From positions 32,001-96,000 of the forward strand of contig CAWBMP010000002.1 of NCBI GenBank assembly GCA_963790025.1: a DNA stretch of 64,000 nt, in the 5' to 3' direction. How positions within the stretch are numbered: position 1 is the first letter of the stretch; every line of letters begins with the position of its first letter. Made by a program: the position numbers and the translations under genes. This DNA is from Nitrospirota bacterium. GTDB taxonomy: Bacteria > Nitrospirota > Thermodesulfovibrionia > Thermodesulfovibrionales > Dissulfurispiraceae. The notes beneath the pieces are model-generated. The model did not search any database and was not told where the DNA came from. It saw only the letters and a program-made list of their open reading frames with translations. Below, in pieces: positions 12,727 through 64,000 of the stretch.

Positions 12727-12877
12727 TGATGAGCTTGATAATGCCCCACAAACGTCCTTTTGCCACAGTAGCGTAGCACAGGATCATGTTAGCCGCTCGT
12801 AAAAAGAATTTTGGTATCAGCTTTTATCTTCCTTATCTCGTCACCAGCTTCCGGAACCAGCGCCACCGCGCTTGCTT

Positions 12878-32449: not shown

Positions 32450-32450
32450 T

Positions 32451-36518: not shown

Positions 36519-36806
36519 TATCGGCCCGACTGCCCTTTCATCTTTATATCAACTGACTCAAGGAATTCAGAGAATTCCTGCTCAGATGCCCCCGGCAACC
36601 TCCTGCACATCTCCTCAATAGCCACTCCATTCCTGAACCCCTTCCTTTATCTGCCGCAGCCCATCAATCACTTCTCTCTCTGGTGTCCCCCGCCTGATCA
36701 GTTCTCTTCCCATATCTGCAATTGTCATTCTCCGATTTATGGCTACTTCATCGAGACTTTCATACTCATCCTCTGTGAGCCGGATACTTATTACTTTTGT
36801 TCGCAT
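36519..36806 (-). pseudogene. RHH (TrwA/MobC-like) gene with a 59-bp frameshifting deletion
   Basis: colinear with 59880-60224; deletion between two TCCTGA hexamers. Confidence 0.85.
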
Positions 36807-36986
36807 AACATACCTCCTTTTTTACAGAGCATGAATGCGAGGCATGGCTGATTTTTGTAATCGGACGTAAACGCCGAAGGAATGATTTATCACATCGGGT
36901 CGGCAGTCAGTAGTGATTACATACTGTGGCAGGCAGGAAGCGCCGGAACTGGCAAGGGAAGTTGCGTTGGGTGTGAATGGTACCAG
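36807..36986. other. putative oriT, copy in element A
   Basis: similar to 60225-60404; GCAA-GGGAAG-TTGCGTTGGGTGTG resembles the F nic region TTTGCGTGGGGTGT^GG. Confidence 0.65.
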
Positions 36987-38925: not shown

Positions 38926-39019
38926 AAGTATTAGGGTAGAGCAATTATCCGGCAATCCAGCGCCCGTCTTCTTCTCTCTCGATTTCTATCTTCATTTTCA
39001 TAAGCTCCGCCATTCTCTT

Positions 39020-39626: not shown

Positions 39627-39786
39627 GGAGACAGGTTGGAGACGTGTTTTCTGGGAATAATATCTTTATTTATCAAGGAGATGAAAAACGGAGGGGGTGA
39701 GATTCGAATAGACCCCCCATTCTCGTATCTATTTGATTTTTTAAGGTTATTATGGCTCTCACAATCTTGGGAGACGGACGGGAGAC
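39627..39786 (-). repeat. att site 2 (junction of A and B): arm-core-arm
   Basis: core at 39689-39708; GGAGAC pairs at 39627/39638 and 39770/39781, 11-bp period. Confidence 0.85.
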
Positions 39787-44785: not shown

Positions 44786-44998
44786 GTCTCCGGAGACGTG
44801 TTGGAGACAGTTTTATGTTGAGGCAGTTTCTTTATTTATCAACGAGTTGTGAAAGTGGCTATTTTGTAATTCCTTTATTTATCAAGTAGATGAAAAACGG
44901 AGGGGGTGAGATTCGAATAGAACGGAGCCGACTGCAACTGTTTGATTTCTAAAGCACTTCCACTCGGTAAAACGCCATTGGAGACAGAGTGGAGACAG
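44786..44998 (-). repeat. att site 3 (junction of B and C): arm-core-arm
   Basis: core at 44898-44917; GGAGAC pairs at 44792/44803 and 44980/44991; IHF consensus at 44837-44849 and 44935-44947. Confidence 0.88.
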
Positions 44999-45013
44999 TG
45001 TTTTTTTGTCATT

Positions 45014-46807: not shown

Positions 46808-46874
46808 TCCTTAGAGTTCCTATGTAATCCGTAACAATTCGATTGCGATTCTTTGCGACAATCATAATCAACAT

Positions 46875-47810
46875 TTATGAATTCTTTTTTATGAGCCAGT
46901 CAGACAGTCCAGAACTTACCACAAGATCAGCAAGCTGTTCTACAAATATCAAATGTATATTATTCTTAGCTGATATCTTCAGTAGTGTTTTGTCAGGCGT
47001 GTGAACAATGTAAAAGAGTTTGGTGAAATCCTTTGTCTGACTGAATCTATTACTGTAATCCTTAAACTCTTTGGCCGTTGAGGAGGATTTTACCTGAACG
47101 AAAATCTTTTCTTTGGTTACCGGAGATATCAAATCAAGATCCAGGTCTTTTTCAGTCTTACCAAGGACACTAACTCTCTGCCAACCGGCATTAGAAAATA
47201 CGAGGTCAACGAGCAATTCGAAATCCTTGGGGGTAAGTTGCTGAATGAGGGGAACAAAATTGTTTTTGAGTGCCTCAAGAGCCTGTTCTGCCTTTACCAC
47301 TTCTATCGGCTTCTTGCCGTTGATCTTGTTGATTATATATTGCTCATCAACAGAACAGATTGTCCCCTGGAATCTTCGAACCTTTGAGAAATTGCCGCTT
47401 ATAGAATCAATTGATAGAGGAGAGCCGTGGATGTCGGTATCGTGCCACTGTCCTATTACCTTTCGTATTTTACTTCCGTCAGATAGTCTTTTAACCCTTT
47501 TTTCGGCAAAGCACCACCATAACCTATTAGCATAAAAAGTAACCCAGAGGGTGTTTTCGTCTGACTCGTAAAAATGCCGTATTTCATTTTTTATCTCGGT
47601 GGCTTTCCCCTTTATCTTGCCTTTATTTTTAAGATAAAAGTCGCGTATCTTTTCCCAGTCACCATTAAGGCAATCCGCATGGTCTGAAGATGCGAAACCA
47701 AGCCTAATTGTATTGTCCTTGGTAATACAATCCTGCTCCCATCGACCTCCGGAGCCCAATTTGATAAAAAAAGCCTTGTTTGGATTAATAGTTGTCATTG
47801 ACGGCACCAT
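46875..47810 (-). CDS. Mrr-like restriction endonuclease
   Basis: LTPKDFELLVDLVF...DLDL...VQVKS Mrr_cat motif at the C-terminus. Confidence 0.8.
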   Translation of the reverse strand: MVPSMTTINPNKAFFIKLGSGGRWEQDCITKDNTIRLGFASSDHADCLNGDWEKIRDFYLKNKGKIKGKATEIKNEIRHFYESDENTLWVTFYANRLWWCFAEKRVKRLSDGSKIRKVIGQWHDTDIHGSPLSIDSISGNFSKVRRFQGTICSVDEQYIINKINGKKPIEVVKAEQALEALKNNFVPLIQQLTPKDFELLVDLVFSNAGWQRVSVLGKTEKDLDLDLISPVTKEKIFVQVKSSSTAKEFKDYSNRFSQTKDFTKLFYIVHTPDKTLLKISAKNNIHLIFVEQLADLVVSSGLSDWLIKKNS

Positions 47811-47816
47811 TGTCCT

Positions 47817-48347
47817 TCATAATTCTCTTCTAACTTTTAAATCAAACAACAATTCCAGCAACTCTCCCATCCCAGTTAATTTTCTAAATTGACTTTTGGG
47901 AATTTCACGGATCGCTGGCCGCTCTTTCTTTTCGCCAAGAGCATTCGCTTTCGTATGTTTAGCTATCTTGAAATGATTTAATGAGGGTAGCGGCTTGCCT
48001 GCAGCATCGCCATAGTAGAGATACTTCAAGCTCATTCTGTGGCTTTCTGAAGATTCATGTCGAATTATCCATACCACACAACTGCTTGGTTTCTGAGCCA
48101 ACGCTGTATTAACCTTTTGTGAAGCTGTCTTGCCCTCCGCGCGAGAATTTTTAAGTTGAACATGCCTCAATATATTATTGCATTCAAGGACCAGATCATA
48201 TCCTGAACTATCGATTTCAGAACGCAAAACCTCTACTGTTGATCCGTAGCTAAACCACGCTTCCTGCAGGAGTTCCGAAATGAAGACATGTTCCACGAGC
48301 TGTTCATAAAAGCCCGATTTTACTGAACATAAAGTTTGCTCGTTCAC
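47817..48347 (-). CDS. PD-(D/E)xK nuclease-like protein
   Basis: E...DSSGYDLVL...HVQLK. Confidence 0.7.
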   Translation of the reverse strand: MNEQTLCSVKSGFYEQLVEHVFISELLQEAWFSYGSTVEVLRSEIDSSGYDLVLECNNILRHVQLKNSRAEGKTASQKVNTALAQKPSSCVVWIIRHESSESHRMSLKYLYYGDAAGKPLPSLNHFKIAKHTKANALGEKKERPAIREIPKSQFRKLTGMGELLELLFDLKVRREL

Positions 48348-48476
48348 AATTCCACCTCCATTGGGGATAGAGCAAAGTTATATATATGGAATAATAGAAA
48401 AATGAAAGGGTTCCAGCTGATCTTGCGGCAGAAAGTTCACGATCTAAAGAGCGTCGTTGAATCAGCCTTTTTTTCG

Positions 48477-49226
48477 CTACCATATTAATTTGTCTTCCGG
48501 CCAATCCTCGTCAAAACTTGAAAAGATAGCCGCATCCATTACACAAGGGAAAATGTCACATGCATCACAAATTCTTTGGAAGCCGTCCAAAACAAAATTA
48601 TAATAATTCTTATCCGACAATGACGTTGCCGACAATTTAATAGGGAAACCGAAATCGGTCAGCCATTTTGTAATTCTGCTATCAATTGGAATCTCAAACC
48701 GCGTAAGACCGAGAGATTGCAGTAAATTTCTGGACTGCTTGGGACCAAAACCTTTCAGGCTGTCAATAATAATCTCAGCAGATTTTCTTTCTGTTTCAGT
48801 CGTCTGATGCCTAGTCATATCTTCAACTATTCCATGTACGATGTCCCATCCCCCATTTTCTAACCACTTACAGTTGACCTTAACCTCTTCGCCAATAGTT
48901 TTGCCTCTTCTCAATCCTCCGAATGCCGTTATAGTTTTTTCTACAGTATTTTGCAGATCGATAGATCCCATGCATTTCGAATAATTCAAGGGAAACGGAG
49001 CTGTGCAAATAAACTTTGTCACGGGACTATTTGGGCCAGACCGTTGTTGAGTAGTGATTAGGCATGAAATCATGGCTTCCCAGAAAAGTTCTTTGGAAAA
49101 TGGAGGAAGGACTTTATTAACATTCCGTTTGATTCGATTTATAACAAAGGCTTTGTTTTTTTGAATCTCGTAAAATGATTTAACCTTTTGAATATCGTTA
49201 TCCTCAATTTGCCAGACTATTTGCAT
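48477..49226 (-). CDS. HhH DNA glycosylase-like protein (Ogg/AGOG-like, no Fe-S)
   Basis: LKGFGPKQSRNLL helix-hairpin-helix with Lys; IPIDSRI Asp. Confidence 0.65.
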   Translation of the reverse strand: MQIVWQIEDNDIQKVKSFYEIQKNKAFVINRIKRNVNKVLPPFSKELFWEAMISCLITTQQRSGPNSPVTKFICTAPFPLNYSKCMGSIDLQNTVEKTITAFGGLRRGKTIGEEVKVNCKWLENGGWDIVHGIVEDMTRHQTTETERKSAEIIIDSLKGFGPKQSRNLLQSLGLTRFEIPIDSRITKWLTDFGFPIKLSATSLSDKNYYNFVLDGFQRICDACDIFPCVMDAAIFSSFDEDWPEDKLIW

Positions 49227-49394
49227 AGGTTCCTTTGTGTATAGCCTATATTATTTTTTTTGTATTCGTATAGCACGCTGCTTACTAGTACCGCCTTTGC
49301 CGCGCCGTCGACCAGATAAACTCCGCCGACTATTTTAACAATTCCCATTGCCTTGGTGTGTCACTATTATAGCCCTGCCATTTCCAAATAAGAT

Positions 49395-50861
49395 TTATGC
49401 TTCCTTAAATAATCCATCGAATAAATGATTGTATTTTTCAAGGTACCTGATTTCTGTAACCGGTGCACATCTGTCAATCATGTGAGTGAATTCCTTTCCC
49501 TCAGCGATTTGGGCACTCGCCTCATACTCAATTTTTGTTTCAATGATTTTATTGAAAGCAGCCATATCGTCAGATAGCACCTGCATTAATTTCTCAAATT
49601 CCTCAGTGTCGATAAAGAAATAGTTTGTCAGGTCTTCCAGGCAATCCTTGCACATGCTGCTGACGCGGTCCTTAATTATGGCCTCACCTATATAAAACTT
49701 TTCGAAATGTAGAATAAGCTTAATTATAGTTTTATCTGTTTCACCTATTTCTTTGACTGTATCAGCGATCTGAATGTATGCCTCTTTGAAATTATTTAAA
49801 TACTTATCCAGCTGTGCCATCGACGGATATTCCTCTTTCAGAGCTATTGTCATTAGACAAGATTTTTGCTCAACAACTAAGGTATATCGACCAGCATGAA
49901 TAAGCCAGTCAGCCTTTTTTTTGTCACCTACAGTAATGCGTTCAAATTGTCCTGGATTCAAATAGAATCCGAGCACCTCTTCAATGTATTTTTCATAATA
50001 TTCTCCAAAATTGTTTGTAAATGCTTGCGATTGTATTTTCATGTGCTTATCACGAATTAACCAATAAATACCTTCATAGAATTTCCTTGCCCAAATAAAA
50101 GCATTCGAAATGATATATTTGTTTGTGCTCGTCTTTACAATGGGCTTAAAAAATAAAGGGTTGTTTGGGAAAGATGCACCTCTATAATAATTATAATCGC
50201 CAGTGAAATGACCTATGCAAGATCTAAGATTTTCCTCAGTCAAAACAGGGTAAGATTCCTTCAATTCATCTGATATTGTAAACTTAATCACTGAGGAAAC
50301 CTGTAACACTGAGAAGCCAGCCATCTGCAGTTGAGCAAAGCTCTTTATATCAAATCCGGAAAGCTCAACTAAATCATTGTTTGGCTGTATATGATGCTGA
50401 AAATAATTCCTTGGAATCTCCGATAATAGAATAAAATATCTCAGAAAGTTGTAATACAGCTTACCTCCCCTGATTATCTCCTGATACCAAAATTGCTTTT
50501 GCGTTAGCCCAAGTAATATATGCGCTTTCAAATCCTCGCTCGGGATTTCTTCTTTGCTCTTTGCTGCCAATTCATCCGAAACTTTAGCTGATAGGTTGGC
50601 CAGCTTACAAATGTCTTCAGAAGAAGGCATAAGCGATCTATGGTCGTTTGAACTCTTTATCGCAGCATAAGATAAATCCGCCAGAACCCATGCTGGAATC
50701 CACTGCTCATATTTGCGCTGAAAACCTCCAAGGGGAATATCCCATATTACTTTCTTAAAAAAACCGTTACTTAAGAAAATTTCTCTCGATAGTTCCGCCA
50801 GGCAGTATAAAAGCTCATCCAGTTTGAATTTCTTAATTTCTTTCTCTAATTCTTCTAACAT
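49395..50861 (-). CDS. hypothetical protein with C-terminal PD-(D/E)xK-like motif
   Basis: GEYYEKYI...KADWLI...VVEQKS. Confidence 0.6.
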   Translation of the reverse strand: MLEELEKEIKKFKLDELLYCLAELSREIFLSNGFFKKVIWDIPLGGFQRKYEQWIPAWVLADLSYAAIKSSNDHRSLMPSSEDICKLANLSAKVSDELAAKSKEEIPSEDLKAHILLGLTQKQFWYQEIIRGGKLYYNFLRYFILLSEIPRNYFQHHIQPNNDLVELSGFDIKSFAQLQMAGFSVLQVSSVIKFTISDELKESYPVLTEENLRSCIGHFTGDYNYYRGASFPNNPLFFKPIVKTSTNKYIISNAFIWARKFYEGIYWLIRDKHMKIQSQAFTNNFGEYYEKYIEEVLGFYLNPGQFERITVGDKKKADWLIHAGRYTLVVEQKSCLMTIALKEEYPSMAQLDKYLNNFKEAYIQIADTVKEIGETDKTIIKLILHFEKFYIGEAIIKDRVSSMCKDCLEDLTNYFFIDTEEFEKLMQVLSDDMAAFNKIIETKIEYEASAQIAEGKEFTHMIDRCAPVTEIRYLEKYNHLFDGLFKEA

Positions 50862-50955
50862 GTAATTTTTTATCGAGCGAAACGGTTCCGAGTTGTTCTA
50901 TTGTAATCTATTTGCAGATTTCAGAATAGACTCGTAGACAATCATTTTACGGTAG

Positions 50956-52338
50956 TTACTTTTTACGGTTGGCTTTATCTACCACCTTGGCTTCAGTATC
51001 CTTTGAACCGAGGGCGGCAAATACAACCATCTGTGCTGTGAGGTCAGTGCAGGCATAGTTTTCCATCGTGGTTCGGATGTCAGTATGCCCCAGCACTCCT
51101 TGAATCGCCTGTATCGGCACTCCGGCTGTGGCCGCCTGTGATGCCACGGAATGCCTTGTGCCGTTCTTAAGTTTTATCTGAACCTCTGCTTGTTTACACG
51201 CTTCATTCCACATATTGTTTACCGGCTTGATGGTGTATGGCCTGCCGGTCCTGGGGTTCAGGAATACATAGGCTTCGGGGAGTTTGTCTGCACACAGGTT
51301 CCTTAACATGGGTATCAATTCAGGGTTGATCATCCGAGGCTTCACCATTCTGGGCTTGGGACATTCTCTGATGATACGGTCTGAAAAGGTTCTGGCAACA
51401 GTGATAATGCCTCTTTCAAAATCAAAGTCTTTCACCTTCAGTGATCGTGCTTCTCCTGGGCGTATCCCCTGTCGTGTCAGGAATGTGAATATTGGTCTAT
51501 CAGGCTCGGGTATGAAGGAAAGTATTTTATCCTGGGTTTCCCGATCGGTCCACTTTGGTGGAGCTTTTAGGACTGAGATTCTTGGGAAGCCCTGTGGCTT
51601 TGTCTTTATAAACTCAAATTCGAGCATATCGTTAAAAAAGTTCTCCAGACAGTCCATAATGCCCTTCTGGTATTTGGGTCTATACTTACTGTTCAAGGAC
51701 TCGTAAAACTGCCGGATGTCATAAGAACGGATATTCCTGATATCCTTGTCTCTGAAATACTTCTTGTAAAAGTTCCTGATGTATGTTTTGTATGTTTTCA
51801 AGGTGCTGGGAGCCAGGTTATCCCGCTCTTTTCCATTTATCCATTCCTGTATCCGGGTTGAGAAGTAATATTTCGCCAGTTCGGCCTTCAAATAATCTTT
51901 CGGGTCGAAGGTATGTTTTTCAATTTCAGCTTCCATGCTTGAAAGGAGGTTATAGGCTCTCTGGAATGTATCGAGCGGCTGCCCCTGTTTGTCGCTAAAG
52001 AACCGTTGACGAGAGCCGTTCCAGCTAAGGTCAACATAGAAGTGTTTGGGGACGGTTTTATGTTTTGGGCAGATAAAGCCGTTCCTGCCTATAAGCATAA
52101 AAGGTCCATCGCATTTGGGGCATCTGCCCTTCGCCCTTATAGCTCCTGCCATGTCTAATCCTTCATTGACAAGTCCTAAAATGTTCTGAATAGCCTCAAG
52201 GCTATCCTCTGTCAACGCCCTTTTTTTCTTTCTCTGTACAGGACCATAGACCAGTTTATCGGGATCAGTCAAGCCTTGGATGCCGGTAGTTTGAGTCTTC
52301 TCCGGCTCATTGTTTTTCACTGTTTTTACAGACTTCAT
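50956..52338 (-). CDS. tyrosine recombinase/integrase
   Basis: GIRPGEA (R), KP (K), TRHS (R), LGH, NY (Y); N-terminal CPKC..CPKH; GGGAGG RBS. Confidence 0.93.
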   Translation of the reverse strand: MKSVKTVKNNEPEKTQTTGIQGLTDPDKLVYGPVQRKKKRALTEDSLEAIQNILGLVNEGLDMAGAIRAKGRCPKCDGPFMLIGRNGFICPKHKTVPKHFYVDLSWNGSRQRFFSDKQGQPLDTFQRAYNLLSSMEAEIEKHTFDPKDYLKAELAKYYFSTRIQEWINGKERDNLAPSTLKTYKTYIRNFYKKYFRDKDIRNIRSYDIRQFYESLNSKYRPKYQKGIMDCLENFFNDMLEFEFIKTKPQGFPRISVLKAPPKWTDRETQDKILSFIPEPDRPIFTFLTRQGIRPGEARSLKVKDFDFERGIITVARTFSDRIIRECPKPRMVKPRMINPELIPMLRNLCADKLPEAYVFLNPRTGRPYTIKPVNNMWNEACKQAEVQIKLKNGTRHSVASQAATAGVPIQAIQGVLGHTDIRTTMENYACTDLTAQMVVFAALGSKDTEAKVVDKANRKK

Positions 52339-52507
52339 AAATAAATAATCCTCCCATAAAATTTATACTCCTATTAGGCACGATCTCGAGCGCGGAAGCC
52401 AAGTTAAATCTGCATCCATTGCAATATTTTTTATTCCTCATAGTCCTATGACGCCATACAATCGGAGCGGAAGCCAAGCTCTTTCTTGCCATTGCAATTA
52501 AACAATA

Positions 52508-52534
52508 CCGTTATGGCTGGTCCCGCCATAACGG
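52508..52534. repeat. 10-bp-stem hairpin between T4CP and integrase
   Basis: CCGTTATGGC-TGGTCCC-GCCATAACGG. Confidence 0.65.
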
Positions 52535-52541
52535 GAAACAC

Positions 52542-54354
52542 CTACCACCTGATTTCACCTATTTCAGGCACCTCATCCTTGCCATAATCGACTCTATCCT
52601 TGTTCCCGGGGCCTCGCTTTTTCTTATTCACATTGACCACTTCTTTTTGTATTTCTACCTGTTGTTTTATGATGTTCTCCATGAGAAAGTCAGACTTTAA
52701 GAGAAATGATTCATTTCTGTCCCGATATGATTTATAGGCGAGTTTTGTCTTAGTAATATCGTAATTGGCTATCTTTACAAGGCATTCCAAGTCCCGGAGG
52801 CTCATAATGTCGGAGGGGAGGATAAGTCTTTCTGTTTTTCTTCTTTTGGTCTGGGAGTAGCCGTCTTTCGTGTGGGACACCCCATCGGAATAGGTTTCCT
52901 CCGTCTCCCAAAATTCCGTCTCACCTATCTTTCGGGATAGAAAATCAGCGGTAGTCGGGTCGGCAACCGAAAACAGAACGCTGTTCCCACAGGCGTTAAC
53001 AATTGCCTGGCGCAGCTGCTCGCTATAAATCTTATCCAGCTGCCCGATATCCTGAATACCCAGCCAGCAGGAGCCGCCCTTAGATCGAGAGAGCGTTAAT
53101 AGCCTCACGATAGTTGAAAGCTTCTGGAGAGTGCCCAGTTCATCCAGAAAAAAGAATATCCGCCGGTGGTAGTCATCTTTCATCGACAGGAGCCTTCTAC
53201 CCATAAGGTCGATAAAGAGGGACAGGATAGGCTTTAGTGTATCCTGCACATCAGCATAATTTGTTACGAATATCCACCCCTTCCCTCTTTCAAGCCAGTC
53301 AACTATTGAAAAGGATACCATCCAACTTCGACATATATTCAAAACTCTTCGTGAACTGCATAAGAACAGAAAACACTGACAGTGCCTGCTTGCTGGTGGG
53401 ATCCTCTATATACCTGCACCCTCTTTGCCCTCCGACAGTATGATTCATCCTTTCGGCAATATCTATGCCGGGGGCCGTGATTTCTTTCCAGATGTCGGCA
53501 TTGGATTTAGCTCCCCCCTGGTAAAGGTAGTGCAGAATACCGGCAAACACATCCCGGGCGGCATCGTTCCAAAAAGGATCTCCCATTAGAGCTTGAGGTA
53601 TCAGGCTGTGCGCGATGGCGTCGATATCCATGGCTGTGGTGATTTCATTAAAAATGCTCCAGCCCAGGCAGCGCCGGTCCAGAGGATTGAATAAGATGTC
53701 CGTATCCGGATTATAAAACCGGCTTACATAGTCCCCTTTGAAGTCATACACGATACCACGTTCACCTCGCTCTTTGAGCCTCTCCAGCACTTGGGACAGA
53801 AAAACCGTCTTACCGACGCCGGGCCGTCCAACAATAAAAGCATGTTTTGGCTCTGCCGATACCGGCAACCTGACTTCTCCAAGAGGCAGGGCTGCTTTCT
53901 CCTTATCTTTTTTAATTTGCTTCATTACCTCACGTTCAGTGATCAGGCTGGCTCCACGTTCATATTTCCGCTTCCTCTGCTTAACCGCTCGGAATTTGAA
54001 TATTCCAATAGCAAGGGGATAGAAAATATATACCACCCCGCACAGGAGGAAAATCCGCTTCATCCTATTACAATATTCATCCGCATAGGGAGCAACCACT
54101 TCACGCAATTTGCCTGCTGTCATGTGATATTCGGCACCGGATTCTCCTACAAGAGACATTTTGTAACTGTCTGGGACAAACTGAGCGAAGAGATATTTGA
54201 AGGAAATGTTTGTTTCTGTCCTGTATACAACCAGCCCCATAACCATGAATACTGATATATGAGCCATCACGAGTAACAACATCGTGTATAGGTGCATCTT
54301 CGCATTTAGCCTGACTGCATTCCACCAGAGTCCGAAGCCCTTGTATGATTCCAT
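52542..54354 (-). pseudogene. TrwB/TraD-like type IV coupling protein, +1 frameshift at ~53316
   Basis: two TM helices, Walker A GRPGVGKT, YDFKG, FNPLDRR and FWNDAAR in one frame; Walker B FFLDELG and GIQDIGQL in the next; span is 3n+1. Confidence 0.88.
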
Positions 54355-54623
54355 GTGCGCTCCCCTGATTAATATTGTGCTACCAGGGAGGTGAATGCTT
54401 ACAGGATAGGAGTTTTAGGGGCATCAATGCCCTGATCCTCATATACTTCTCTACTTTGCTTTCTGCATCGTAAGATAGCTGTTCTTCCTGCTAATAAACA
54501 TCGTTGCTTTTTGGTATAATGAGGCAGATTACAAAAGGGAACTGCCTCAAAAACACATGAATTGCCCAAAAAGTAAAGCATGAGGGTCAGGCAAAATTGC
54601 TAACTTATATTGGAGAATTGTAA

Positions 54624-56057
54624 ATGTCAACATTTTCGAAATTTTTTGGCATAAATAAAACCCAGGCTGAACTGGATTTTGTAGATGTGCCACTTAACAA
54701 GGATACGGCTCTCTTTATTGACCCATACGCCATATCGCAGAGAAGGGACTCTTGGAGCCAGTCATGTCATGAACTAATTAAGTACTTTTTTCAGTTGATC
54801 ATTGAAAGTATTCGGGCTGGCAACTATGATAAGGCTAAGGAATTATTGCTTTACCTAAAAGAACCGAATGAAACACGTCTTGGGTTCTCCAAGAATCGAC
54901 CACAAGGGGCCGGGATAGGTCACTTTCAAGCCGAGCAGCTTTACCGAGCAATCAGCGAGTCCACCGCTGTAAAAACTGGTTTTCTCTCTTCTCTAGAGGA
55001 ATGTGAGTTGATGATTGATGGCATTAGTAGAGATAAGATTTCAGACCTTACAACAAACATTATACGCAAAAAAATCGAAGAGTATACTATTGAACAATGT
55101 AAGCTCTATGATATATCGCTCCAAGAAGTTGCTCTTCCCCCGTATTTTTCGATAGAGGAGAACACTTGGGTAAGCGATTATTACCACCTCCCAGTCCATA
55201 AAAACAGGCCCATCCTTCTGGTTCCAAAGTTTGTTGCAAGATATTCACTTGATTATAATTCGGGTGATTATTATAACAATTACGTTATCAACTTTCTTCA
55301 AGCAGAAAACTTATCAGCTGGGAGCAGCCTTGTTAGAACTCTTAGGAATGGCAAAAGGGTCATTTACAGAAAAGATTTAAAAGCAAGATACCCTTTTTCC
55401 AAAAAATTTCTCTTTGAGTTTTCAAAGAGTAATCCAACAATTCTTGCAAACTATAGGGCAGCCTTGCGTGCCTTTGAAAAAAAACACCATGAGATAAACG
55501 AGGGATCAGAAGATGAGCAATTATTAGCTGATTCTCTGTCAATAGCTTTGCATAATATTCCTCCAGGTTCTGAATATGCTTCTTCTTATCACAATCTTAT
55601 GCTTGGTATTCTTGAATTTATATTTTATCCATATCTTATTTATCCGAGAAAAGAGAATGAAATTCACCAAGGACGGAGGCGTATAGATATTGTGATGGAG
55701 AATGGTGCTAAGTCTGGAATATTCAGAAGATTGCATGAGATACGTAAGATTCACTGCCCCTTTATATCAATTGAATGCAAGAATTATAAAACGGATGTAA
55801 CAAATCCAGAAATTGACCAATTGTCTGGTCGGTTTTCGCGTGATAGAGGAATCGTCGGTGTTCTATGCTGTCGAAGTTTTGAAGATGATAATCTTTTCAT
55901 AAAGCGGTGTGTTGATACTTTTAAGGATGGAAGAGGTCTCATAATTCATCTTGATGATAATAGGATAGAAGAGCTTCTCAGTTTAACGAGAAATAATAAG
56001 CGGAATCAGATGGATTCAAAAGTCACTGGCTACTTTGATGCAGTGCACTTTTCATAG
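54624..56057 (+). CDS. hypothetical protein with C-terminal restriction-endonuclease fold
   Basis: ENEIHQGRRRIDIV...IECKNY...IDQL. Confidence 0.7.
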   Translation: MSTFSKFFGINKTQAELDFVDVPLNKDTALFIDPYAISQRRDSWSQSCHELIKYFFQLIIESIRAGNYDKAKELLLYLKEPNETRLGFSKNRPQGAGIGHFQAEQLYRAISESTAVKTGFLSSLEECELMIDGISRDKISDLTTNIIRKKIEEYTIEQCKLYDISLQEVALPPYFSIEENTWVSDYYHLPVHKNRPILLVPKFVARYSLDYNSGDYYNNYVINFLQAENLSAGSSLVRTLRNGKRVIYRKDLKARYPFSKKFLFEFSKSNPTILANYRAALRAFEKKHHEINEGSEDEQLLADSLSIALHNIPPGSEYASSYHNLMLGILEFIFYPYLIYPRKENEIHQGRRRIDIVMENGAKSGIFRRLHEIRKIHCPFISIECKNYKTDVTNPEIDQLSGRFSRDRGIVGVLCCRSFEDDNLFIKRCVDTFKDGRGLIIHLDDNRIEELLSLTRNNKRNQMDSKVTGYFDAVHFS

Positions 56058-56076
56058 CCTTGAATGCTAAAGCATC

Positions 56077-57108
56077 ATGAGACAATTTACAGTCATAATA
56101 GAACAAATTAATCAGAGTAAGAACCTTATTCTTGAGAATGATACTGCCTCCCTCCGTATGGCGCTGATTTTACTTGATAATGCCGCCGAAATTCTCATGT
56201 ACAGAAAGGTGTTAAGTGAATTCGGCGATAACGAAATATGCCGAAAGATTCGCGAGCAGGCAAAGTCAGCACTGCCACCAGACGTTTTCGACAAATTTTT
56301 ATCTGAACACGCAGTACCGGAAATTCTTGAGGAAAAGAAAAAGAGAAAGATTATAAAGTATTTTGATGAAAAAATAACTTTTTTATGTGATGCCTGCGGT
56401 CATATCCCCGGCCCCGTGGGGGCAGTATTGTCTTCACTTCACAGGTACAGGAATGAAACATATCATCGTGACATAATACGAAACGAGATACTGCGTCCCA
56501 TTGCCATTCTTTATTTTGAATTGGTTTGTGAGCTTCTGACTTATCTACAACAAAGTGCCGTTAGTTACCATAGCGAAGACGATTGGTCGCATTTTTTCAC
56601 GAAGTTTGGCTTCGGCGAGAGGCAATATAAAATGAGGATGCTAAGTGATGAAGACATTGAAACAATCTTGAATAGATTCCGGGCGGAATTGTCAATCAAC
56701 TTAAATGAGCTAAGGGAGACTCTCCAAGAATATGCAATTAACAGACTCGACGAAACTTTAGACAGGCTCAACTTTATATCAGACACGATGGGTATCAAAT
56801 CATGCGATACCACTTTAAAACTCATGCAGTTCACGCAAACAAGTGAGTCTCTAAAATATAATAATAGAAACCTACTCCTCCAAAGCAAGAAATTTAATGA
56901 ATACGCAGCCCCGATTACAGCGGTCGTTTTCTTAAATTGGAAGACAAATGCACAGCATTTTGTTAGTCTCCAGGATAAACTTGACCTATTTATTGCCTTC
57001 AAGAACTTAGAAGATCAGTTTGAACCTATTGAACATAGAATATATGATGTCGCAGATAAATTAGATCAGGAAATTCAGTTTGCTATAGATTTGGCGCGAG
57101 GAAAATAG
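56077..57108 (+). CDS. HEPN-like domain protein
   Basis: LDNAAE helix and RNETYH (RxxxxH) motif. Confidence 0.55.
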   Translation: MRQFTVIIEQINQSKNLILENDTASLRMALILLDNAAEILMYRKVLSEFGDNEICRKIREQAKSALPPDVFDKFLSEHAVPEILEEKKKRKIIKYFDEKITFLCDACGHIPGPVGAVLSSLHRYRNETYHRDIIRNEILRPIAILYFELVCELLTYLQQSAVSYHSEDDWSHFFTKFGFGERQYKMRMLSDEDIETILNRFRAELSINLNELRETLQEYAINRLDETLDRLNFISDTMGIKSCDTTLKLMQFTQTSESLKYNNRNLLLQSKKFNEYAAPITAVVFLNWKTNAQHFVSLQDKLDLFIAFKNLEDQFEPIEHRIYDVADKLDQEIQFAIDLARGK

Positions 57109-57158
57109 AGTTCTGAAATATGAAAATGCTAAAGAGATGTTAGAAGCTTGTACCGTCA

Positions 57159-59612
57159 TCACGTTTTCGACTGCAAATTCCAGAAAATATTCCCGCAGGG
57201 ACACTTTACATTCGCTGGAATCGTGCCTGCCATGTTAAGTCCAATTACTCCAGGGCACTCAGAACATCTGAATATCCCTTCCATATCCTGAAATGCTTCC
57301 ACTATCGGTAGAAAATCCTCTTTCGAGAAATCTCCCCATTTAGAATAATGGACATTTTCATTTATTCCCCATTGCTCCATCTGTGTACGCTGAATGATCT
57401 CAGCGGCCTGCGATTCCATTTCAGTATACTTTTCGACTTCTTCACGCTTGTTCCAGCTGTTTGCAGCATTCTTAGCTGATTTAAGGTGCTCCTTAAACGC
57501 CTTCTTCGCTCCATTAAGAAAATCCCCTAGCTCCCATCTGCCGTCACTCTTGTAGCAGACTTCCGCCTTCAGCGAGTCGCACACATTCTCATAGAAGAAT
57601 TCTAAGTGCTCTCTGAGTTGGTGAGCTGCTGACGCTATCTCGTTATTTTCCAATTTTCTTCGGATACCTTCCCACACATCACTATGCCCTTCTTGTCTTG
57701 GTCCGCTCTCTACCGTCCATGCCCTGAATTCAACCATGTTACGGCTGCGCACCACGCCATCAGTACTAAGCTGCCTTGCCCACGTCCTGTTGTGTGTTGT
57801 TATTATGAACTGGCTATCGGGAAAATGATGCTTTAGGAGTTTGCATATGTTTCTTCGATGGTTGCTGTCGATAGACATAACCACATCGTCAAGCATAATA
57901 AGTTTGACCTTATCCTCAGATATTTTTTTATTTAACGCTAAGTAAAGGCAGAGACCCATGCTGTCCTGATGCCCCTCGCTGTGAAGCGCTCGCGGGTGAT
58001 GTATGCCCCTACCATAGAAGGCCACCTTGAATTCAAGTTGGGCGCCTTCCGGTTTAAGTTCTGCATAAAAGTCTTTTTCGTCTTCACCATGCAAAAACTT
58101 GTAAAAGACGGTGAAATCCTGATTTACTGAATCATACAGATTTTCCAGAACCTTATCCTTGGTTTCGGTATAAGTCTTTGACAAAACAGTGGCGCGCTCG
58201 GCGAATTTAGTCGAACTCTCGTATTTTCCCTTTTCGCCAAAATACCTTGTGAGAATAGGCTTGAGTGCTGTCAACGCATCCCACGCTTCTTGTTCCGGCG
58301 TAAGCTTCACGACCCCTTCCGTAATCTTCTCAAGTTCTTTACAGTATGACTCGCAATTTTCACCAGCAATAAACATAGTGATGTCATCCTTATTAGGTTC
58401 TTCTAGCGGATAATCCTCCAATGCTTGCCTTAATGCATCAGCCCATGCAGTCAGCCTCTTTTTCCAGGCCTCCAAAGTATTCTTAATATTTTCCTGCCCG
58501 AGTTTTTCAGAAGCATCCACTATGGTACTTAAATAGCCAATGAGCTTCGTGATTTCGGTATCATTCTGAGTTGTGAGTTTGCGAATCTTTTCCTCTATTT
58601 CCTCTGCCTCTTTTGCCGTAAGAAGTCTCTGCCGAAGGAATATCTCAAGTTTACCAGGTTCCCATTTTGTCAGGCAAAGCGGACAAGAGCCTGTTTCATC
58701 AATCAAAGATATCCCCAAGTCAAGAAGCCTCTTGCCTGCAAGATCTCTCTTAAGCTTTTCATTTTCCTTCAATGTCCTGATTGTCTCTCTGAGATTTTTT
58801 TCTGTCTCATAAACTTGAGAGCCCATTTCGCGAATCAATTTATCTAAGGCGAACAAAGTCCTTTTAAGCGACTCCGGATCCACCTGGGTCTTTTCGTCCT
58901 TCGTTAACGGGCTTATGTACTCCTTCAGCTTATGTGATTCTAGGGAGTCAAGCGGATCTCCTTTGAGAATTGCTCGACAGGCATTTACCTTTTTCAATAC
59001 ACCTTCTTCCGAGAATCCTCCCAGTCCCAATGTCGTTTTTATGCTCGCCATAGAGGTCTCGTAGTTGGCCTTATCAGTCTGTACAGCCCTGTCCGCTTCT
59101 CTCTTTATTGTCACAAATACTTTTCGTATTTCCTCCAACCTGTCCAGATTGAGGATAGCCTGAATTTCTTCGGCTCTTTTGCCGGACTCTGCCGCTATGT
59201 ATTTCAATATTTCAGACCGAGATAGGACATGCTGGCCTTTCTCAGCAATCTCAAGGGTTTCTCCAAATATTTCCTGCGCTATATTTGGACAAATCAATTC
59301 TTTCGGCTTAGACATCTCTCTTCTCAATGGAATAGGCTCGTCAATTCCAGCTATCTCGATTTTTGCAGTTACCACTGCTGCCTCAGGCTCTGCGTCTATG
59401 TGAGGGCCGTGGTCTTTCAGGCTTATCCCTCTCGTTCCCCTTCCTGTCAGCCTGGATATATCTCCAGTGAAAAGGAATTCTATTGCATCTATGACAGCGC
59501 TTTTGCCGGTGCCGTTTGGCCCGTAAATCACGAGATTTTCGCCATTCGGCTTAAGGGAAATCCTATTTCTTATCCCTCTGACGTTTTCTATTTCAAACTC
59601 AAGAATTTTCAT
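57159..59612 (-). CDS. SMC/Rad50-like ABC ATPase with zinc hook and C-terminal CxxC..CxC
   Basis: GPNGTGKS, CPLC, HSEGH signature, LDDVV, TTH, CSEC...CPC; start MKILEF at 59612. Confidence 0.85.
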   Translation of the reverse strand: MKILEFEIENVRGIRNRISLKPNGENLVIYGPNGTGKSAVIDAIEFLFTGDISRLTGRGTRGISLKDHGPHIDAEPEAAVVTAKIEIAGIDEPIPLRREMSKPKELICPNIAQEIFGETLEIAEKGQHVLSRSEILKYIAAESGKRAEEIQAILNLDRLEEIRKVFVTIKREADRAVQTDKANYETSMASIKTTLGLGGFSEEGVLKKVNACRAILKGDPLDSLESHKLKEYISPLTKDEKTQVDPESLKRTLFALDKLIREMGSQVYETEKNLRETIRTLKENEKLKRDLAGKRLLDLGISLIDETGSCPLCLTKWEPGKLEIFLRQRLLTAKEAEEIEEKIRKLTTQNDTEITKLIGYLSTIVDASEKLGQENIKNTLEAWKKRLTAWADALRQALEDYPLEEPNKDDITMFIAGENCESYCKELEKITEGVVKLTPEQEAWDALTALKPILTRYFGEKGKYESSTKFAERATVLSKTYTETKDKVLENLYDSVNQDFTVFYKFLHGEDEKDFYAELKPEGAQLEFKVAFYGRGIHHPRALHSEGHQDSMGLCLYLALNKKISEDKVKLIMLDDVVMSIDSNHRRNICKLLKHHFPDSQFIITTHNRTWARQLSTDGVVRSRNMVEFRAWTVESGPRQEGHSDVWEGIRRKLENNEIASAAHQLREHLEFFYENVCDSLKAEVCYKSDGRWELGDFLNGAKKAFKEHLKSAKNAANSWNKREEVEKYTEMESQAAEIIQRTQMEQWGINENVHYSKWGDFSKEDFLPIVEAFQDMEGIFRCSECPGVIGLNMAGTIPANVKCPCGNIFWNLQSKT

Positions 59613-59778
59613 CGTTCTCTTCAATTTTAAGCAGCTTCGCTATATCATCTTTCCTTAAATCCCGGGAATGGAGGATCTTTTTAAGGGATTCGAGGTGCCC
59701 TTCATTTAGAAAGCCGGTTACTTCTAACTCTTCTATGAACTTATTTATTACTTGCTTGGATACAGATGTTAAAGCCAT
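59599..59778 (-). CDS. 59-aa small protein coupled to the ATPase (below the ORF-track cutoff)
   Basis: GGAG RBS; MALTSVSKQVINKFIEELEVTGFLNEGHLESLKKILHSRDLRKDDIAKLLKIEENDENS; overlaps the ATPase ATG. Confidence 0.75.
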   Translation of the reverse strand: MALTSVSKQVINKFIEELEVTGFLNEGHLESLKKILHSRDLRKDDIAKLLKIEENDENS

Positions 59779-59879
59779 CTTTTCTTCTCCAAAGAGATGT
59801 TCAGAACGCCTGAAATATTAATTGCTTCAGTATATCTCGTAAGTCTGCTGATACTCAAGGGGAAATCAAATATCATCTA

Positions 59880-60224
59880 CTACTCGGACTGTTCTTTCAC
59901 CTTCTTATCCACTGTCTCAAGGTATTCAGAAAATTCCTGCGCTGATGCCCCCTGCAGTCTCCTGAACATCTCCTCAATAGCCACTCCGTTCCTGACGGCG
60001 TAATACAGATTTTTCCTAAGCCCCCTATCCAGCGCCATATCCCTTAACTCCTGAACTCCCTCCATTATCTGCCGTAGCCCGTGAATCACTTCTCTTTCCG
60101 GCACCCCTTGCCTGATGAGTTCCCTTACCATATCCGCAATTGTCATTCTCCTGTTGATGGCAATTTCATCCAAGCGCTCGTATTGATCCTCCGTCAGCCT
60201 TATACTTACCACTTTCGTTCGCAT
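59880..60224 (-). CDS. ribbon-helix-helix relaxosome accessory-like protein (TrwA/MobC-like)
   Basis: MRTKVVSIRLTEDQYERLDEIA...IADMVRELI; AAGGAGG RBS; adjacent to oriT-like site. Confidence 0.75.
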   Translation of the reverse strand: MRTKVVSIRLTEDQYERLDEIAINRRMTIADMVRELIRQGVPEREVIHGLRQIMEGVQELRDMALDRGLRKNLYYAVRNGVAIEEMFRRLQGASAQEFSEYLETVDKKVKEQSE

Positions 60225-60404
60225 GCTCTGCCTCCTTTTTATGGGGCATGAATGCGAGGGCATGGCTGATTTTTGTAATCGGACGCAATCGCCGAAAGGA
60301 TGAATCATCTTTTCGGCGCGGCTGCCGGTGGCGATTACAGAAGGTGGCAGGCGGGCAGTGCCGGGAGTGGCAAGGGAAGTTGCGTTGGGTGTGAATGGTA
60401 CCAG
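60225..60404. other. putative oriT, copy in element C
   Basis: TTGCGTTGGGTGTG at 60380-60393 with a GCAA/TTGC hairpin; conserved with 36807-36986. Confidence 0.65.
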
Positions 60405-60774
60405 AGGTCTCAACCGTGGTGAACAATACCCAACGCTCTGATTGTATTTTGTCGGCTATACCGACACATTTCGGGAACAGGTCCAACATTGCCAGAACCT
60501 AAAAATTATGTGAATTGAAAAATCCAATAAATACAGAGCTGTTCTGTTTTACATATATTGATATTATCAGACGTTCGCCTTTGACGACTCCCGTGCCGGG
60601 ACACAAAATCCTGTCCTGAACCGGCATAGTAGGATTATTGTCACTTTGCCACGTTTGAACAAGCAGGAAAGTTCTATAATTCCAGCTTTACTTCTTCATC
60701 TGGCCTCCATGTATCGGCAGCCCCTTAAAGGAAACGCCCGGTTCGCATTCACCCATTACAAAGGAGAAATGACG

Positions 60775-61167
60775 ATGAAGAAAAAGATAAGGTTGACATT
60801 CAATGATAGTAACGACTTCGATGCTGTAATTATGAGCGCTCTATTACCGGGTAGTCTGCGCAGTACTACTATCAAGAGGCTAATGTATGATGCCATTATT
60901 GGCCCCCGGCGAGCCCCCGAAAGGACTCCAGCGAGGCTCCAAAGAGATACTGAAAAGCCCCATTATGAGACATCAGAGCGGCCCCGCCGAGACACTGAAC
61001 AGCCCCAGGGGAAACACACTTCTCTAGATACCAAGAAGAGCACTCTGTCGAGCGTCATGGGGGATTTCCTTGAAGATGAGCCCCTAACACCTCAAGCCGG
61101 GCAACGATTTACAAGCGAAGAGGACAGGAGAATCAATGAGAAATTGAAAAGACTGTCGATAATTTGA
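60775..61167 (+). CDS. hypothetical backbone protein (possible RHH N-terminus, disordered middle)
   Basis: AAGGAG RBS; MKKKIRLTF...; divergent from the RHH gene across oriT. Confidence 0.6.
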   Translation: MKKKIRLTFNDSNDFDAVIMSALLPGSLRSTTIKRLMYDAIIGPRRAPERTPARLQRDTEKPHYETSERPRRDTEQPQGKHTSLDTKKSTLSSVMGDFLEDEPLTPQAGQRFTSEEDRRINEKLKRLSII

Positions 61168-61238
61168 AATGTTGACCCACACACAGAAGACCTCGCAAAC
61201 GTCGGGCATGATCAGCAACCTATGAGGCACAAGCCGCG

Positions 61239-62027
61239 CTATGAGTGACGATACCATTTGAGAAGCACCTCCGGCTGTAAATATTCTTTATCAGGAGAAG
61301 GGGTGAGAGTATGCGCCCAAACCATGTCCAGACCAATATTGCTTTCAGAAAACAGATTCGGTGGTGGTGGAATATCAGCACCATGCAAATAATCAAGCAG
61401 TAATAGCGGAATAACAGATTGCTCAGATTTCAGAAAACATAATAATATTCCAGTTGAAGCACCTTGCAAAGAACCCGAGAGAACGGCCTTCTTGAATTTA
61501 TCAGTATACTTTTTGATTGCCCGATTAGCTAAGGCGGAAATAATTGCTTCTCTTGATCGATGTATATGATGCAATTCCACATTAACAATATCGAGCCAGA
61601 ATTCTTTCTCTTTGATAATCAAAACAACATCAGCATCTTTTGAGTTAGTGCCGGTCTCAAAGGGCATTTCCATTTTAACTTGCTGGCCACCATTAATAAA
61701 GTGAATAGCCCAAGCTGCCTCGGCAACAGTATCCAAGAATATACTCGGTGTTTTTCTAAATAGGTTTTGGCTGACCAGCTTTTGCCATACCTTTATCTGC
61801 GCCAGTTTATTACACTGAAGTCGTCTAATAAGTTCATCTATAGTCGCCAAGTAATGATAATAGTCTACACGCCAGCGGGGATAATCGTCGCGCGCCATTT
61901 GGCAGCAATCGCAAAGACGCAATAACTTGTCTGTTTGAGGACAAGCGGATAGGGCAAGTTGTTCTAATGTAGCCCCTTGACTTTGAGCCAAAGATGAAAG
62001 AGCAGGATATTGAAAGTCAATGTTCAT
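61239..62027 (-). CDS. hypothetical protein, possible degenerate PD-(D/E)xK fold
   Basis: AEAAWA...KDADVVL...FWLDIV. Confidence 0.6.
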   Translation of the reverse strand: MNIDFQYPALSSLAQSQGATLEQLALSACPQTDKLLRLCDCCQMARDDYPRWRVDYYHYLATIDELIRRLQCNKLAQIKVWQKLVSQNLFRKTPSIFLDTVAEAAWAIHFINGGQQVKMEMPFETGTNSKDADVVLIIKEKEFWLDIVNVELHHIHRSREAIISALANRAIKKYTDKFKKAVLSGSLQGASTGILLCFLKSEQSVIPLLLLDYLHGADIPPPPNLFSESNIGLDMVWAHTLTPSPDKEYLQPEVLLKWYRHS

Positions 62028-62058
62028 ATACGGCTATCACCTGAAGCAAAGGAACGAG

Positions 62059-62084
62059 TTACGAGCTAAGAGGACAAGAGAATC
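62059..62084 (+). repeat. 26-bp copy of the 3' region of gene 60775-61167
   Basis: TTACGAGCTAAGAGGACAAGAGAATC versus 63079-63104 (1 mismatch) and 61109-61134. Confidence 0.8.
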
Positions 62085-62101
62085 CTTGACCTTGCCTCTT
62101 A

Positions 62102-62857
62102 TTATTTTTCTGCTGGACCAAAATCCTTATCCATTCTGGCCAATGCTAGAAATGCTTGTGAAATAGATTCTATTTCTTTTTCGGCCAGCTTCTTCCCTTT
62201 CTTATTCTCAACAATGTAATCGTAGAGCTGCTCATCCTTGACGCAATGAATATAGCCGGTCGTACCCCATCTTGCCTCCACGTAAGCTGAAGGAAAGGCA
62301 AAAACGCCTTGGACATAGGGGTCCAGAGGAGAGAGAACTTTTATTTTTTCCTTGATACTCATTATTCTACGTGTGAGATTTTTGATTTCTGTTTTCTGAG
62401 TCGGATTTCCATTTAACAAAAGCTCCCCATTGCCGTCAGCGGCTACAACTCCCTTCCAATTCTTTGCATCAATGACGTAAGCCCCGGTGGGGCCGATAAC
62501 CACATGGTCGATGTTTCCGAAAGGAGTCGTCAGATCATGGATAACCCTGTAGTCGTCCGGAAACCCTTCGAGGACGTAGCCGATAACTGCCTCGCCAACT
62601 GCCCCTTTCCGGAAGTTGATCCTCTCGATTTCCAATGCCTTAAGTTTCTTGTTCGTCCATCTCATAATCAGTGGAATAGCTATAACGAAAATGACTATTA
62701 GGATGAGCGCAAATGAGACTTTTCGACCGCCAAATAAACAACCGTCGATAAACGCTAAGCCCCAGAAAACTAAGAAGATTACAAGAAACTGCCTTTGAAA
62801 CTTTTTTATAGACTGTTCCGTTACATACCGCGCTGTCTCACCTAACACTTTCGCCAC
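62102..62857 (-). CDS. membrane-anchored NERD domain protein
   Basis: two TM helices; GAVGE, HDL, NIDHVVIGPTGAYVIDAKNW. Confidence 0.85.
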   Translation of the reverse strand: MAKVLGETARYVTEQSIKKFQRQFLVIFLVFWGLAFIDGCLFGGRKVSFALILIVIFVIAIPLIMRWTNKKLKALEIERINFRKGAVGEAVIGYVLEGFPDDYRVIHDLTTPFGNIDHVVIGPTGAYVIDAKNWKGVVAADGNGELLLNGNPTQKTEIKNLTRRIMSIKEKIKVLSPLDPYVQGVFAFPSAYVEARWGTTGYIHCVKDEQLYDYIVENKKGKKLAEKEIESISQAFLALARMDKDFGPAEK

Positions 62858-63042
62858 GAGCTATTCTCCAATTTGTTTATGGCAGGCTGTCTGACTTGCC
62901 ACGAATCATTGTACCACACTTAGAGAAGCCAATAATGCTCAAAAGAATCATTGGGAACCTGCAAATTACCGCTGCTATTGATACATCCAACCCGGCACCA
63001 CAAACAGCTTCCCATACTTCAGCACGCTATGAAAAAGCCATT

Positions 63043-63137
63043 GAGAATAAGCCCCTGCCACCTCAAACTGGCAACGCTTTACGAGCGAAGAGGACAAGAG
63101 AATCAATGAGAAATTGAAGAGGCTGTCGCTAATATAA
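63043..63137 (+). repeat. ~95-bp copy of the 3' end of gene 60775-61167
   Basis: encodes FTSEEDKRINEKLKRLSLI* versus FTSEEDRRINEKLKRLSII*. Confidence 0.85.
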
Positions 63138-63148
63138 CATGACAACTT

Positions 63149-63838
63149 CTAGCAATATTCCTTGATCTTCTTCTTACAGTAAGAGACTATTACACAGTCG
63201 TCACACTCTGGGGAGAGCGCAGTGCATATCTTGCGACCGTGTGAAACCATATTCACGTGTAAAGGGAAGCGCAAAGCTGGAGGAATAAGGTCCTGTAAAT
63301 AGTCCATGGCCATGTCGGAAACACGACTAGCATTGCAGCGATTGCCGTTCCACCCTAATCTGCCGGCAATTCTCCAGCAGTGGGAGTCAACCGGGAAAAC
63401 TTGTCGGTCAAGCGAATAAAGCATCACACAGCGGGCAACTTTACTCCCGACGCCTGGGAGACTAGTGAGAAATCTTTCGCATTCCTCGTCTGACATTTTT
63501 TTGAGCGGGGCTAATGTAGGCCTGCCGAAATTCTTTATCAGACATTGAACAATCGCCTTAGCAGAACCCGCTTTCCGATTTTGCAAGCCGCCCCAGGAGA
63601 CGACTTTGCTTAGCTCTTGAACTGAAGTGGTAGCAAGGAGTTCATATCTTGGAAAGTTTTGCTTCAGGGATTTGAAGGCTTTGAAGTAAACCTTCTCGCT
63701 CCTCTTTATGCTACAAAGAATAAAGAACAGCTCATCCAAAGGATTTCGTTTATTGCGGTGTGAAAAATTATTATACTGACTGCTGAGACGCCGGGTAATT
63801 TCGTAAATATTTGTAGCTAATGCTTTTTTCGTCTTCAC
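63149..63838 (-). CDS. endonuclease III-like HhH-GPD DNA glycosylase with Fe-S cluster
   Basis: LPGVGSKVA, FPVDSH, C-x6-C-x2-C-x5-C. Confidence 0.88.
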   Translation of the reverse strand: MKTKKALATNIYEITRRLSSQYNNFSHRNKRNPLDELFFILCSIKRSEKVYFKAFKSLKQNFPRYELLATTSVQELSKVVSWGGLQNRKAGSAKAIVQCLIKNFGRPTLAPLKKMSDEECERFLTSLPGVGSKVARCVMLYSLDRQVFPVDSHCWRIAGRLGWNGNRCNASRVSDMAMDYLQDLIPPALRFPLHVNMVSHGRKICTALSPECDDCVIVSYCKKKIKEYC

Positions 63839-64000
63839 TCAGTTCTATTCGCTATCCATTTTAACTAGCACTGTGCTTGCGTAGGCACGGATGTGGTGAA
63901 ATGCGGCCCTGAAAAGGCAGTCTTTCCATCATATTCAATTAAATCGAGGTTAGGCTGTTGTGATAGAGTGGATGACGTACCTCTTGAATTGTTGAGAGAA

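Follow-up and report, generated by a model that had tools for sequence, protein, structure and literature searches.

Integrative elements that carry an origin of transfer (oriT) and no relaxase are common and are represented by the iOriT elements (bioRxiv 10.64898/2026.01.13.699239) and by the mobilizable genomic islands (MGIs; PMC5704250). In this work we describe element C, an island of similar appearance in the genome of a Nitrospirota bacterium (G000; 3.45 Mb in 5 contigs, 98.8% complete). The window analysed is a stretch of 64,000 nucleotides, G000:C2:32001-96000, and positions given without a genome or locus name refer to it. An earlier note on this window had described positions 50956..61167 as a relaxase-less mobilisation module composed of an oriT, a ribbon-helix-helix (RHH) gene, a coupling protein and a tyrosine integrase, and had put it forward as a candidate for an undescribed system. 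This module is a part of element C, which reaches past both its ends. Rather than an undescribed system, element C most likely represents a reduced form of a familiar kind of element, and its closest complete relative has trwC, the gene of a MOB_F relaxase-helicase. We consider it quite probable that element C is a trwC-less derivative of a Nitrospirota family of MOB_F integrative and mobilizable elements (IMEs) and can be mobilised only in trans.

Like the iOriTs and MGIs, element C is an att-bounded chromosomal island with a tyrosine integrase and an oriT, in which neither a relaxase nor mating-pair genes were found, and it carries defence-type cargo near the oriT. An integrase, att sites and an oriT with no relaxase are also the features by which iOriTs and relaxase-less IMEs are defined. 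However, iOriTs are described as unrelated to their helpers beyond the oriT (bioRxiv 10.64898/2026.01.13.699239), whereas element C keeps its own RHH protein and type IV coupling protein (T4CP) and is close kin of its likely helpers; the available part of Table 2 of PMC5704250 has no entry for an IME that combines VirD4 with the lack of a relaxase. Among IMEs that do have their own coupling protein, MOB_F elements are known from Mesorhizobium (PMC8627217) and elements with MobC and VirD4 from Streptococcus (PMC5704250). The Nitrospirota parent family resembles these in having a relaxase, a T4CP and an integrase, with several members located at tRNA genes. Element C differs in having no relaxase, and the family order places trwC on the far side of the oriT. 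Judged by its F-type nic site and its TrwB/TraD-type T4CP, element C looks like a MOB_F IME whose own TrwC/TraI relaxase is absent.

Element C measures 22.8 kb from att to att (minus strand; ARAGORN and repeat search), occupying positions 44894..64000 and a further 3.7 kb past the end of the window. Its integration target is a tRNA-Ser(TGA) gene at G000:C2:99698-99785 (ARAGORN), the 3' end of which forms one att core, and a 24-bp direct repeat of this 3' end at 44894..44917 (minus strand) closes the element. The 100 bp flanking the latter site share 89-95% identity with the flanks of the att sites in two other genomes, G008 and G009. The tRNA search of the 64-kb window was empty because the tRNA-Ser sits outside it. 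Att repeats were also looked for right after the integrase stop codons, where there are none; the true att lies 6 kb further on and was located from the tRNA. A pair of GTCTCC hexamers 11 bp apart at 44980..44996 (minus strand) represents candidate arm-type integrase sites, and similar pairs occur at the tRNA end and beside the att at 39685, that is, at both ends of element C and of its neighbour, element B, against an expectation of 0.068 hexamers per 310 bp. These pairs are placed as arm-type sites would be and may function as such.

No relaxase was recognised in the window, in the end of element C past the window or in genome G000. Profile searches of G000 with working controls returned no PF08751, PF03432, PF07514, PF03389 or PF01076, 14 relaxases used as tblastn queries gave no match at E 0.01, and none of the four genes of element C past the window, beyond position 64000, is relaxase-like by eye. 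The same genome holds no TrwC and no VirB4 helper of family PF03135, the only VirB4 family searched. The absence that the earlier note had observed in the window therefore extends to the rest of the element and the genome. It seems extremely improbable that a relaxase is hidden among the cargo of element C or that trwC was dropped by the assembly: several cargo open reading frames (ORFs) have no family match and the assembly contains at least one probable base error, but the cargo between the RHH gene and the T4CP differs in every close relative, the tblastn searches were empty, and element C is continuous on a 772-kb contig. No joints, including any that would mark excision, were seen in one short-read run (X1), the cover of which is patchy over element C and does not include the tRNA end.

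The position of the relaxase gene was established from relatives. Altogether, 29 related T4CP loci were found in 25 of 316 other genomes, and 24 of these 25 genomes also hold TrwC, although they are kin and not independent draws. When the coordinates of TrwC and T4CP were compared, TrwC lay on the same contig in 24 of the 29 loci, always upstream of the T4CP (22 co-oriented, 2 divergent). Homologous elements are thus not consistently relaxase-less, a point on which the earlier note had wanted its proposal judged. The five T4CP loci without TrwC include three on short contigs (G009:C203, G076:C25 and G077:C62) and two in G195. Both G195 loci are adjacent to a tRNA and have a distant T4CP and a 177-aa gene (L113:10520-11053 and L114:10285-10818) with a sub-threshold match to MobL/PF03432 (E ~1e-3); this gene possibly encodes a minimal or split relaxase, and the loci were not taken as relaxase-less.

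The closest complete relative of element C is found in G008 at the same tRNA-Ser, with an integrase and an intact T4CP that are each 85% identical to those of element C. Its TrwC of 950 aa (PF08751, 2e-85; NF041492 above cut-off) is encoded at 175996-178848 of G008, inside the first att interval of that genome (162408-197075). Across the relatives, the T4CP matches P0001, P0003 and P0004 range from 74% to 89%. The family order is trwC, oriT, RHH, T4CP and integrase. In plasmid R388 the order is oriT-trwA-trwB-trwC, which had served the earlier note as a template. Element C resembles R388 and F in that an RHH gene and the gene of a TrwB/TraD-type protein come after its oriT, and 12 of the 14 bases before the predicted nic equal those of F. 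The divergent gene of element C is ParR-like. In contrast to R388, the relaxase follows the T4CP in none of the 24 related loci, which makes R388 the wrong template. What the earlier note had said would speak against its proposal, a trwC between T4CP and integrase in relatives and thus a simple deletion here, is in substance observed: the G008 element does contain trwC, although upstream of both genes and not between them.

The F-type oriT core of element C is a 16-mer at 60379..60394 (plus strand), recognised by its match to F and to TrwC elements; the oriT-like site of the earlier note is confirmed in that it recurs between trwC and RHH in other genomes. By alignment to the F plasmid site, nic is predicted between 60392 and 60393, and the three bases that interact in F are kept (F nic site and interacting bases from PMC2504302). 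A second exact copy of the 16-mer occurs in the window at 36962, where 0.03 would be expected at 2 mismatches; the first copy counts by construction and not as evidence in this estimate, and the motif exceeds chance expectation. In seven of ten TrwC loci the 16-mer recurs, with 0-3 mismatches, in the interval from trwC to RHH and on the opposite strand to RHH; in six of eight further TrwC loci a 13-mer is matched with no more than one mismatch. The relaxase domain of G008 falls into one group with the domains of L054 and L059 (support 85/89), two loci that share the exact oriT 16-mer of the window. By its sequence, then, the oriT is a MOB_F substrate.

Two further observations concern the surroundings of the oriT. 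Its core has an adjacent inverted near-copy in L054:3100-3165 and L056:6485-6530, while the window has none. In L051-L059 and L102-L112, the predicted nic has trwC on its leading side, so that this gene would be the first to reach the recipient. In R388 and F, the relaxase gene is placed oppositely relative to nic.

The tyrosine integrase of element C (50956..52338, minus strand; 460 aa) starts 203 bp after the T4CP gene on the same strand and is the only integrase of the element. It comprises an N-terminal Cys3His module, a core-binding domain (PF14659 and PF13495 above cut-off, residues 159-240) and a catalytic domain with the set R293, K328, R395, H418 and Y428. Of these residues, R395 is invariant in 15 and the others in all 16 of 16 homologues, while the first His is replaced. 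The predicted structure matches integrases with core-binding and catalytic domains, such as XerA and those of Tn1549 and lambda. As element C is flanked by direct repeats of a tRNA 3' end, like the products of tRNA-targeting tyrosine integrases, and holds one recombinase, this protein is the only candidate for acting at the att sites, and it would be expected to excise and integrate the element in the ordinary way, at the 24-bp att core.

The earlier note had read the same gene as occupying the slot of the relaxase, and had suggested that it may double as one. In such a scheme the integrase would recombine att sites, nick the oriT and pilot the strand through its own T4CP, in the manner of the MOB_M relaxases, which demonstrate that tyrosine-recombinase-like relaxases exist (PMC8152469). 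Its catalytic domain near an oriT is a likeness to these proteins, no other relaxase was recognised in G000, and the adjacency of T4CP and integrase is conserved in four close members. However, the MOB_M relaxases TcpM, MpsA and MobK are described without core-binding and arm-binding domains (PMC8152469), whereas the protein of element C has a core-binding domain and is modelled with the fold of the Tn1549 and lambda integrases. In addition, 96% of MOB_M relaxases are near a separate integrase (bioRxiv 10.64898/2026.01.13.699239), whereas element C has no second recombinase. The oriT is of the type found beside TrwC, and most homologues of the integrase have no T4CP. The relaxase slot of the family is upstream of the oriT, and T4CP and integrase are just as closely spaced where trwC is present: the gap is 196, 257, 257 and 163 bp in the TrwC-bearing loci L058, L110, L111 and L112, respectively, and G008 is itself one of the four close members. 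Other TrwC-bearing elements have further genes between T4CP and integrase. The adjacency is thus the ordinary end of such elements and lends no support to an integrase in the relaxase slot. A dual role as integrase and relaxase would be of major importance, but the evidence speaks against it and we hold it to be very unlikely.

The N-terminal module that the earlier note had spotted consists of C73-x2-C76 and C90-x2-H93. Its three Cys are invariant in 16 of 16 homologues, and the fourth ligand is Cys in ten, His in five and Asn in one; the module is a trait of this integrase family and is not tied to mobilisation. It is confidently modelled as a beta-sheet plus helix (pLDDT 90). A Foldseek search gave no match at E 0.001, and the best structural scores were Z 5.5 to unrelated folds and Z 4.0 to the GCC-box fold, a result that argues neither for a new fold nor for a difference. 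We found no paper that links tyrosine recombinase, arm-binding, zinc and a CXXC module. The IntDes proteins, reported from Desulfovibrio only, are arm-binding tyrosine recombinases with a shifted first Arg and the first His changed to Tyr (PMC8138268). The integrase family of element C is similar in that the first catalytic His is replaced and that Tyr stands four residues before R395 in 12 of 16 members; the window integrase has Lys at the position of this Tyr, and the available part of the IntDes description mentions no zinc module, whereas the present family has the Cys module.

Integrase homologues occur in 57 of the 316 other genomes (five candidates scored per genome), nine of which have a T4CP match, on the same contig in two. 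None of the 13 homologue loci that were read contains a T4CP or TrwC match. A tRNA or tmRNA lies within the stretch in six of these 13, and two more (L094 and L095) abut the same tRNA-Ser.

The coupling protein (52542..54354, minus strand; PF10412, TIGR02759 partial) is assembled as two ORFs, 53299-54354 and 52542-53342, which cover PF10412 positions 4-187 and 191-384. The split results from a one-base frameshift near 53317, where the assembly has one extra base compared with three close relatives in which the T4CP is intact at 603-605 aa. One short-read contig of run X1 (depth 2.8), one of 42, is without the extra base; 40 of the 42 contigs are at least 99% identical to the sequence, and the run may represent the source sample. 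On this thin coverage, the frameshift is probably an assembly error, and it was dropped as a sign of decay once this contig was found.

Several results weigh against the view that element C is a derivative that lost its relaxase gene. Since the frameshift is probably an assembly error, it provides no evidence of decay, and dN/dS of 0.05-0.12 for T4CP, RHH and integrase against three relatives indicates no relaxed selection, although such pairwise values mostly reflect a long shared past and cannot date the loss of trwC. Only two close members are seen end to end, G008 with trwC and G000 without, and scans with single close queries added only one new close member. At G009:C203, the T4CP is intact and trwC is absent from the 7.1 kb between oriT and contig end; L083 has an intact T4CP and no trwC in 10 kb upstream of it. 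At a distance of 8.4 kb from the oriT, the trwC of G008 may be part of a nested element; the interval contains no att core, but it does contain a 14-bp match to the tRNA variable arm (at 179751 of G008, inside a gene). Moreover, the oriT match is poor (4-6 mismatches) in three of the ten TrwC loci and two of the eight further loci have no close match, and the T4CP tree, for the most part without resolution, does not mirror the relaxase tree.

Some of these points would suit a stable lineage of hitchhikers, in which oriT, RHH and T4CP remain under selection, TrwC is supplied by a sister MOB_F element and the channel by a third. Loss of trwC would then be a strategy and not decay, with three parties needed for movement. 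No trwC was present in the DNA seen of three of the four close members, but two of these three are incomplete because the contig or locus ends within them, and the one other complete member, G008, has trwC. The T4CP is intact in three relatives and probably in G000 too; dN/dS is about 0.1, with the reservation already made. G000, G009 and G004 contain additional oriT cores, beside which the DNA that was read has no T4CP match. As for helpers, G009 holds a TrwC elsewhere, but this sole TrwC of the genome belongs to another element and fits the oriT poorly (L055, 5 mismatches in 16), and G000 has neither of the helper genes searched. We regard such a lineage as rather unlikely; if real, a stable relaxase-less lineage that keeps its T4CP would add one strategy for hitching on conjugation.

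We therefore return to descent from a relaxase-bearing IME. Element C would have inserted at the 3' end of the tRNA-Ser and would descend from the family with trwC, oriT, RHH, T4CP and integrase, a close sub-lineage of which acquired cargo between the modules. The copy in G000 would have lost, rather than its relatives gained, trwC, together with parM; a plausible route is recombination between sequences that are repeated in tandem neighbours. This route is suggested because the left arm of element C resembles the small second element of G008 (HhH-GPD gene and ParR remnant, 74% identical). Such a copy could not nick its own oriT and would need a cognate TrwC from a sister element and a mating channel from another; alternatively, it could ride in cis with a complete neighbour. 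The loan of a MOB_F relaxase in trans to an element with its own T4CP, as the earlier note had proposed in the second place, may be such a route, though no helper was found in G000. Relaxase inactivation in decaying elements is one known source of relaxase-less loci (PMC3158045).

Tandem accretion of IMEs and cis-mobilizable elements (CIMEs), with decay, is likewise described at tRNA ends (PMC5704250). The present array shows no difference in kind: element C is the tRNA-proximal member of three tandem, related and partly decayed elements, each delimited by att sites at the tRNA-Ser and with decayed integrases in the other two. A second att repeat at 39685..39708 (minus strand) closes element B, which is 5.2 kb long and contains an integrase remnant at 40799-41110. 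The third repeat at 5989..6010 (minus strand), imperfect by one missing base, marks the far end of the array. Element A, ~33.7 kb, holds an integrase remnant (12390..12779, minus strand; C-terminal 111 residues 90% identical to the intact integrase) and, at 36527..36977 (minus strand), a broken RHH copy with the identical second oriT core at 36961-36977 on the plus strand. Positions 13000-36150 of element A comprise ~23 kb of host-like genes (ABC transporters, RND efflux pump, glycogen phosphorylase; names by eye), and its G+C is raised to 0.51-0.59 over 20001-33000. Two ParA-like genes are present at 3301-3795 and 38014-38955, the first resembling an internally deleted copy, and a 97% identical gene is located near tRNA-Ser in G007. 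Rfam at gathering thresholds gave 0 matches.

The individual parts of the module in the earlier note stand, including the RHH gene, the coupling protein, the closely following recombinase and the divergent small gene. The RHH gene and T4CP are not neighbours, however, and the T4CP frameshift had gone unmentioned. The RHH protein of 114 aa (59880..60224, minus strand; PF01402) most likely starts at 60224; the longer ORF of 177 aa runs through the oriT. Its gene holds the same position in TrwC-bearing elements, and it is a probable relaxosome accessory protein. The 5.5 kb between RHH and T4CP contain three cargo genes at 54624..59624 on mixed strands: a PDC-M36A-like protein (54624-56057, plus strand; E 3e-48), a 343-aa protein with no family assignment (plus strand, within the same interval) and an SMC/LmuB-like ATPase (57159-59624, minus strand; E 9e-31), the first and last of which are candidate anti-phage cargo. 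This slot carries different cargo in each of the four close members and looks like a hot spot, for which we found no mechanism. Two RHH copies flank the cargo in G008 (L022:7230-9723; radical-SAM gene) and in L083 (L083:198-7233; five or six genes).

Additional cargo comprises five nuclease-like genes with weak Pfam matches between integrase and att (45014..50861, minus strand) and, in the leading region, a 262-aa protein with no assignment, a NERD and an HhH-GPD protein (61239..63838, minus strand). Past the window, up to the tRNA, there follow a 308-aa gene and DGQHR-like, restriction enzyme-like and methyltransferase-like genes (names by eye). The divergent small gene is likely 60769..61167 (plus strand) and encodes a ParR-like protein (E 5e-5 to the gene after ParM in L051); no match to a ParM partner was found in the island. 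A 102-bp repeat of its 3' end, 83% identical, occurs at 61070-61171 and 63041-63141, and ParR 3'-end remnants of like kind are also present in G008 and G009. In the gap between T4CP and integrase, positions 52390-52505 contain two imperfect copies of ~35 bp with the core GCGGAAGCCAAG ... CATTGCAAT on the plus strand, a possible operator or promoter. A related stretch of 48 bp lies elsewhere in the G008 element (166811-166858), and G009 has ~800 extra bases at the gap.

Downstream of the T4CP in L051, L052, L053, L056, L104 and L105, we noted a run of genes with signal-peptide-like starts, which have no or weak Pfam matches where scanned; one shares a 'DT..TGK' stretch near its start. These genes may be cargo, or they may form a mating or surface module that has escaped recognition. 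The Nitrospirota family showed no recognisable mating-pair gene, although this was not a full test. A similarly thin test of the literature on Nitrospirota elements and on MOB_F, IMEs and T4CPs found no account of the family. Element C illustrates how islands accrete and decay at a tRNA gene. It also draws attention to a family of MOB_F elements with their own T4CP, which is present in about 24 of 316 genomes from this order of Nitrospirota and has an oriT that is conserved and can be aligned.

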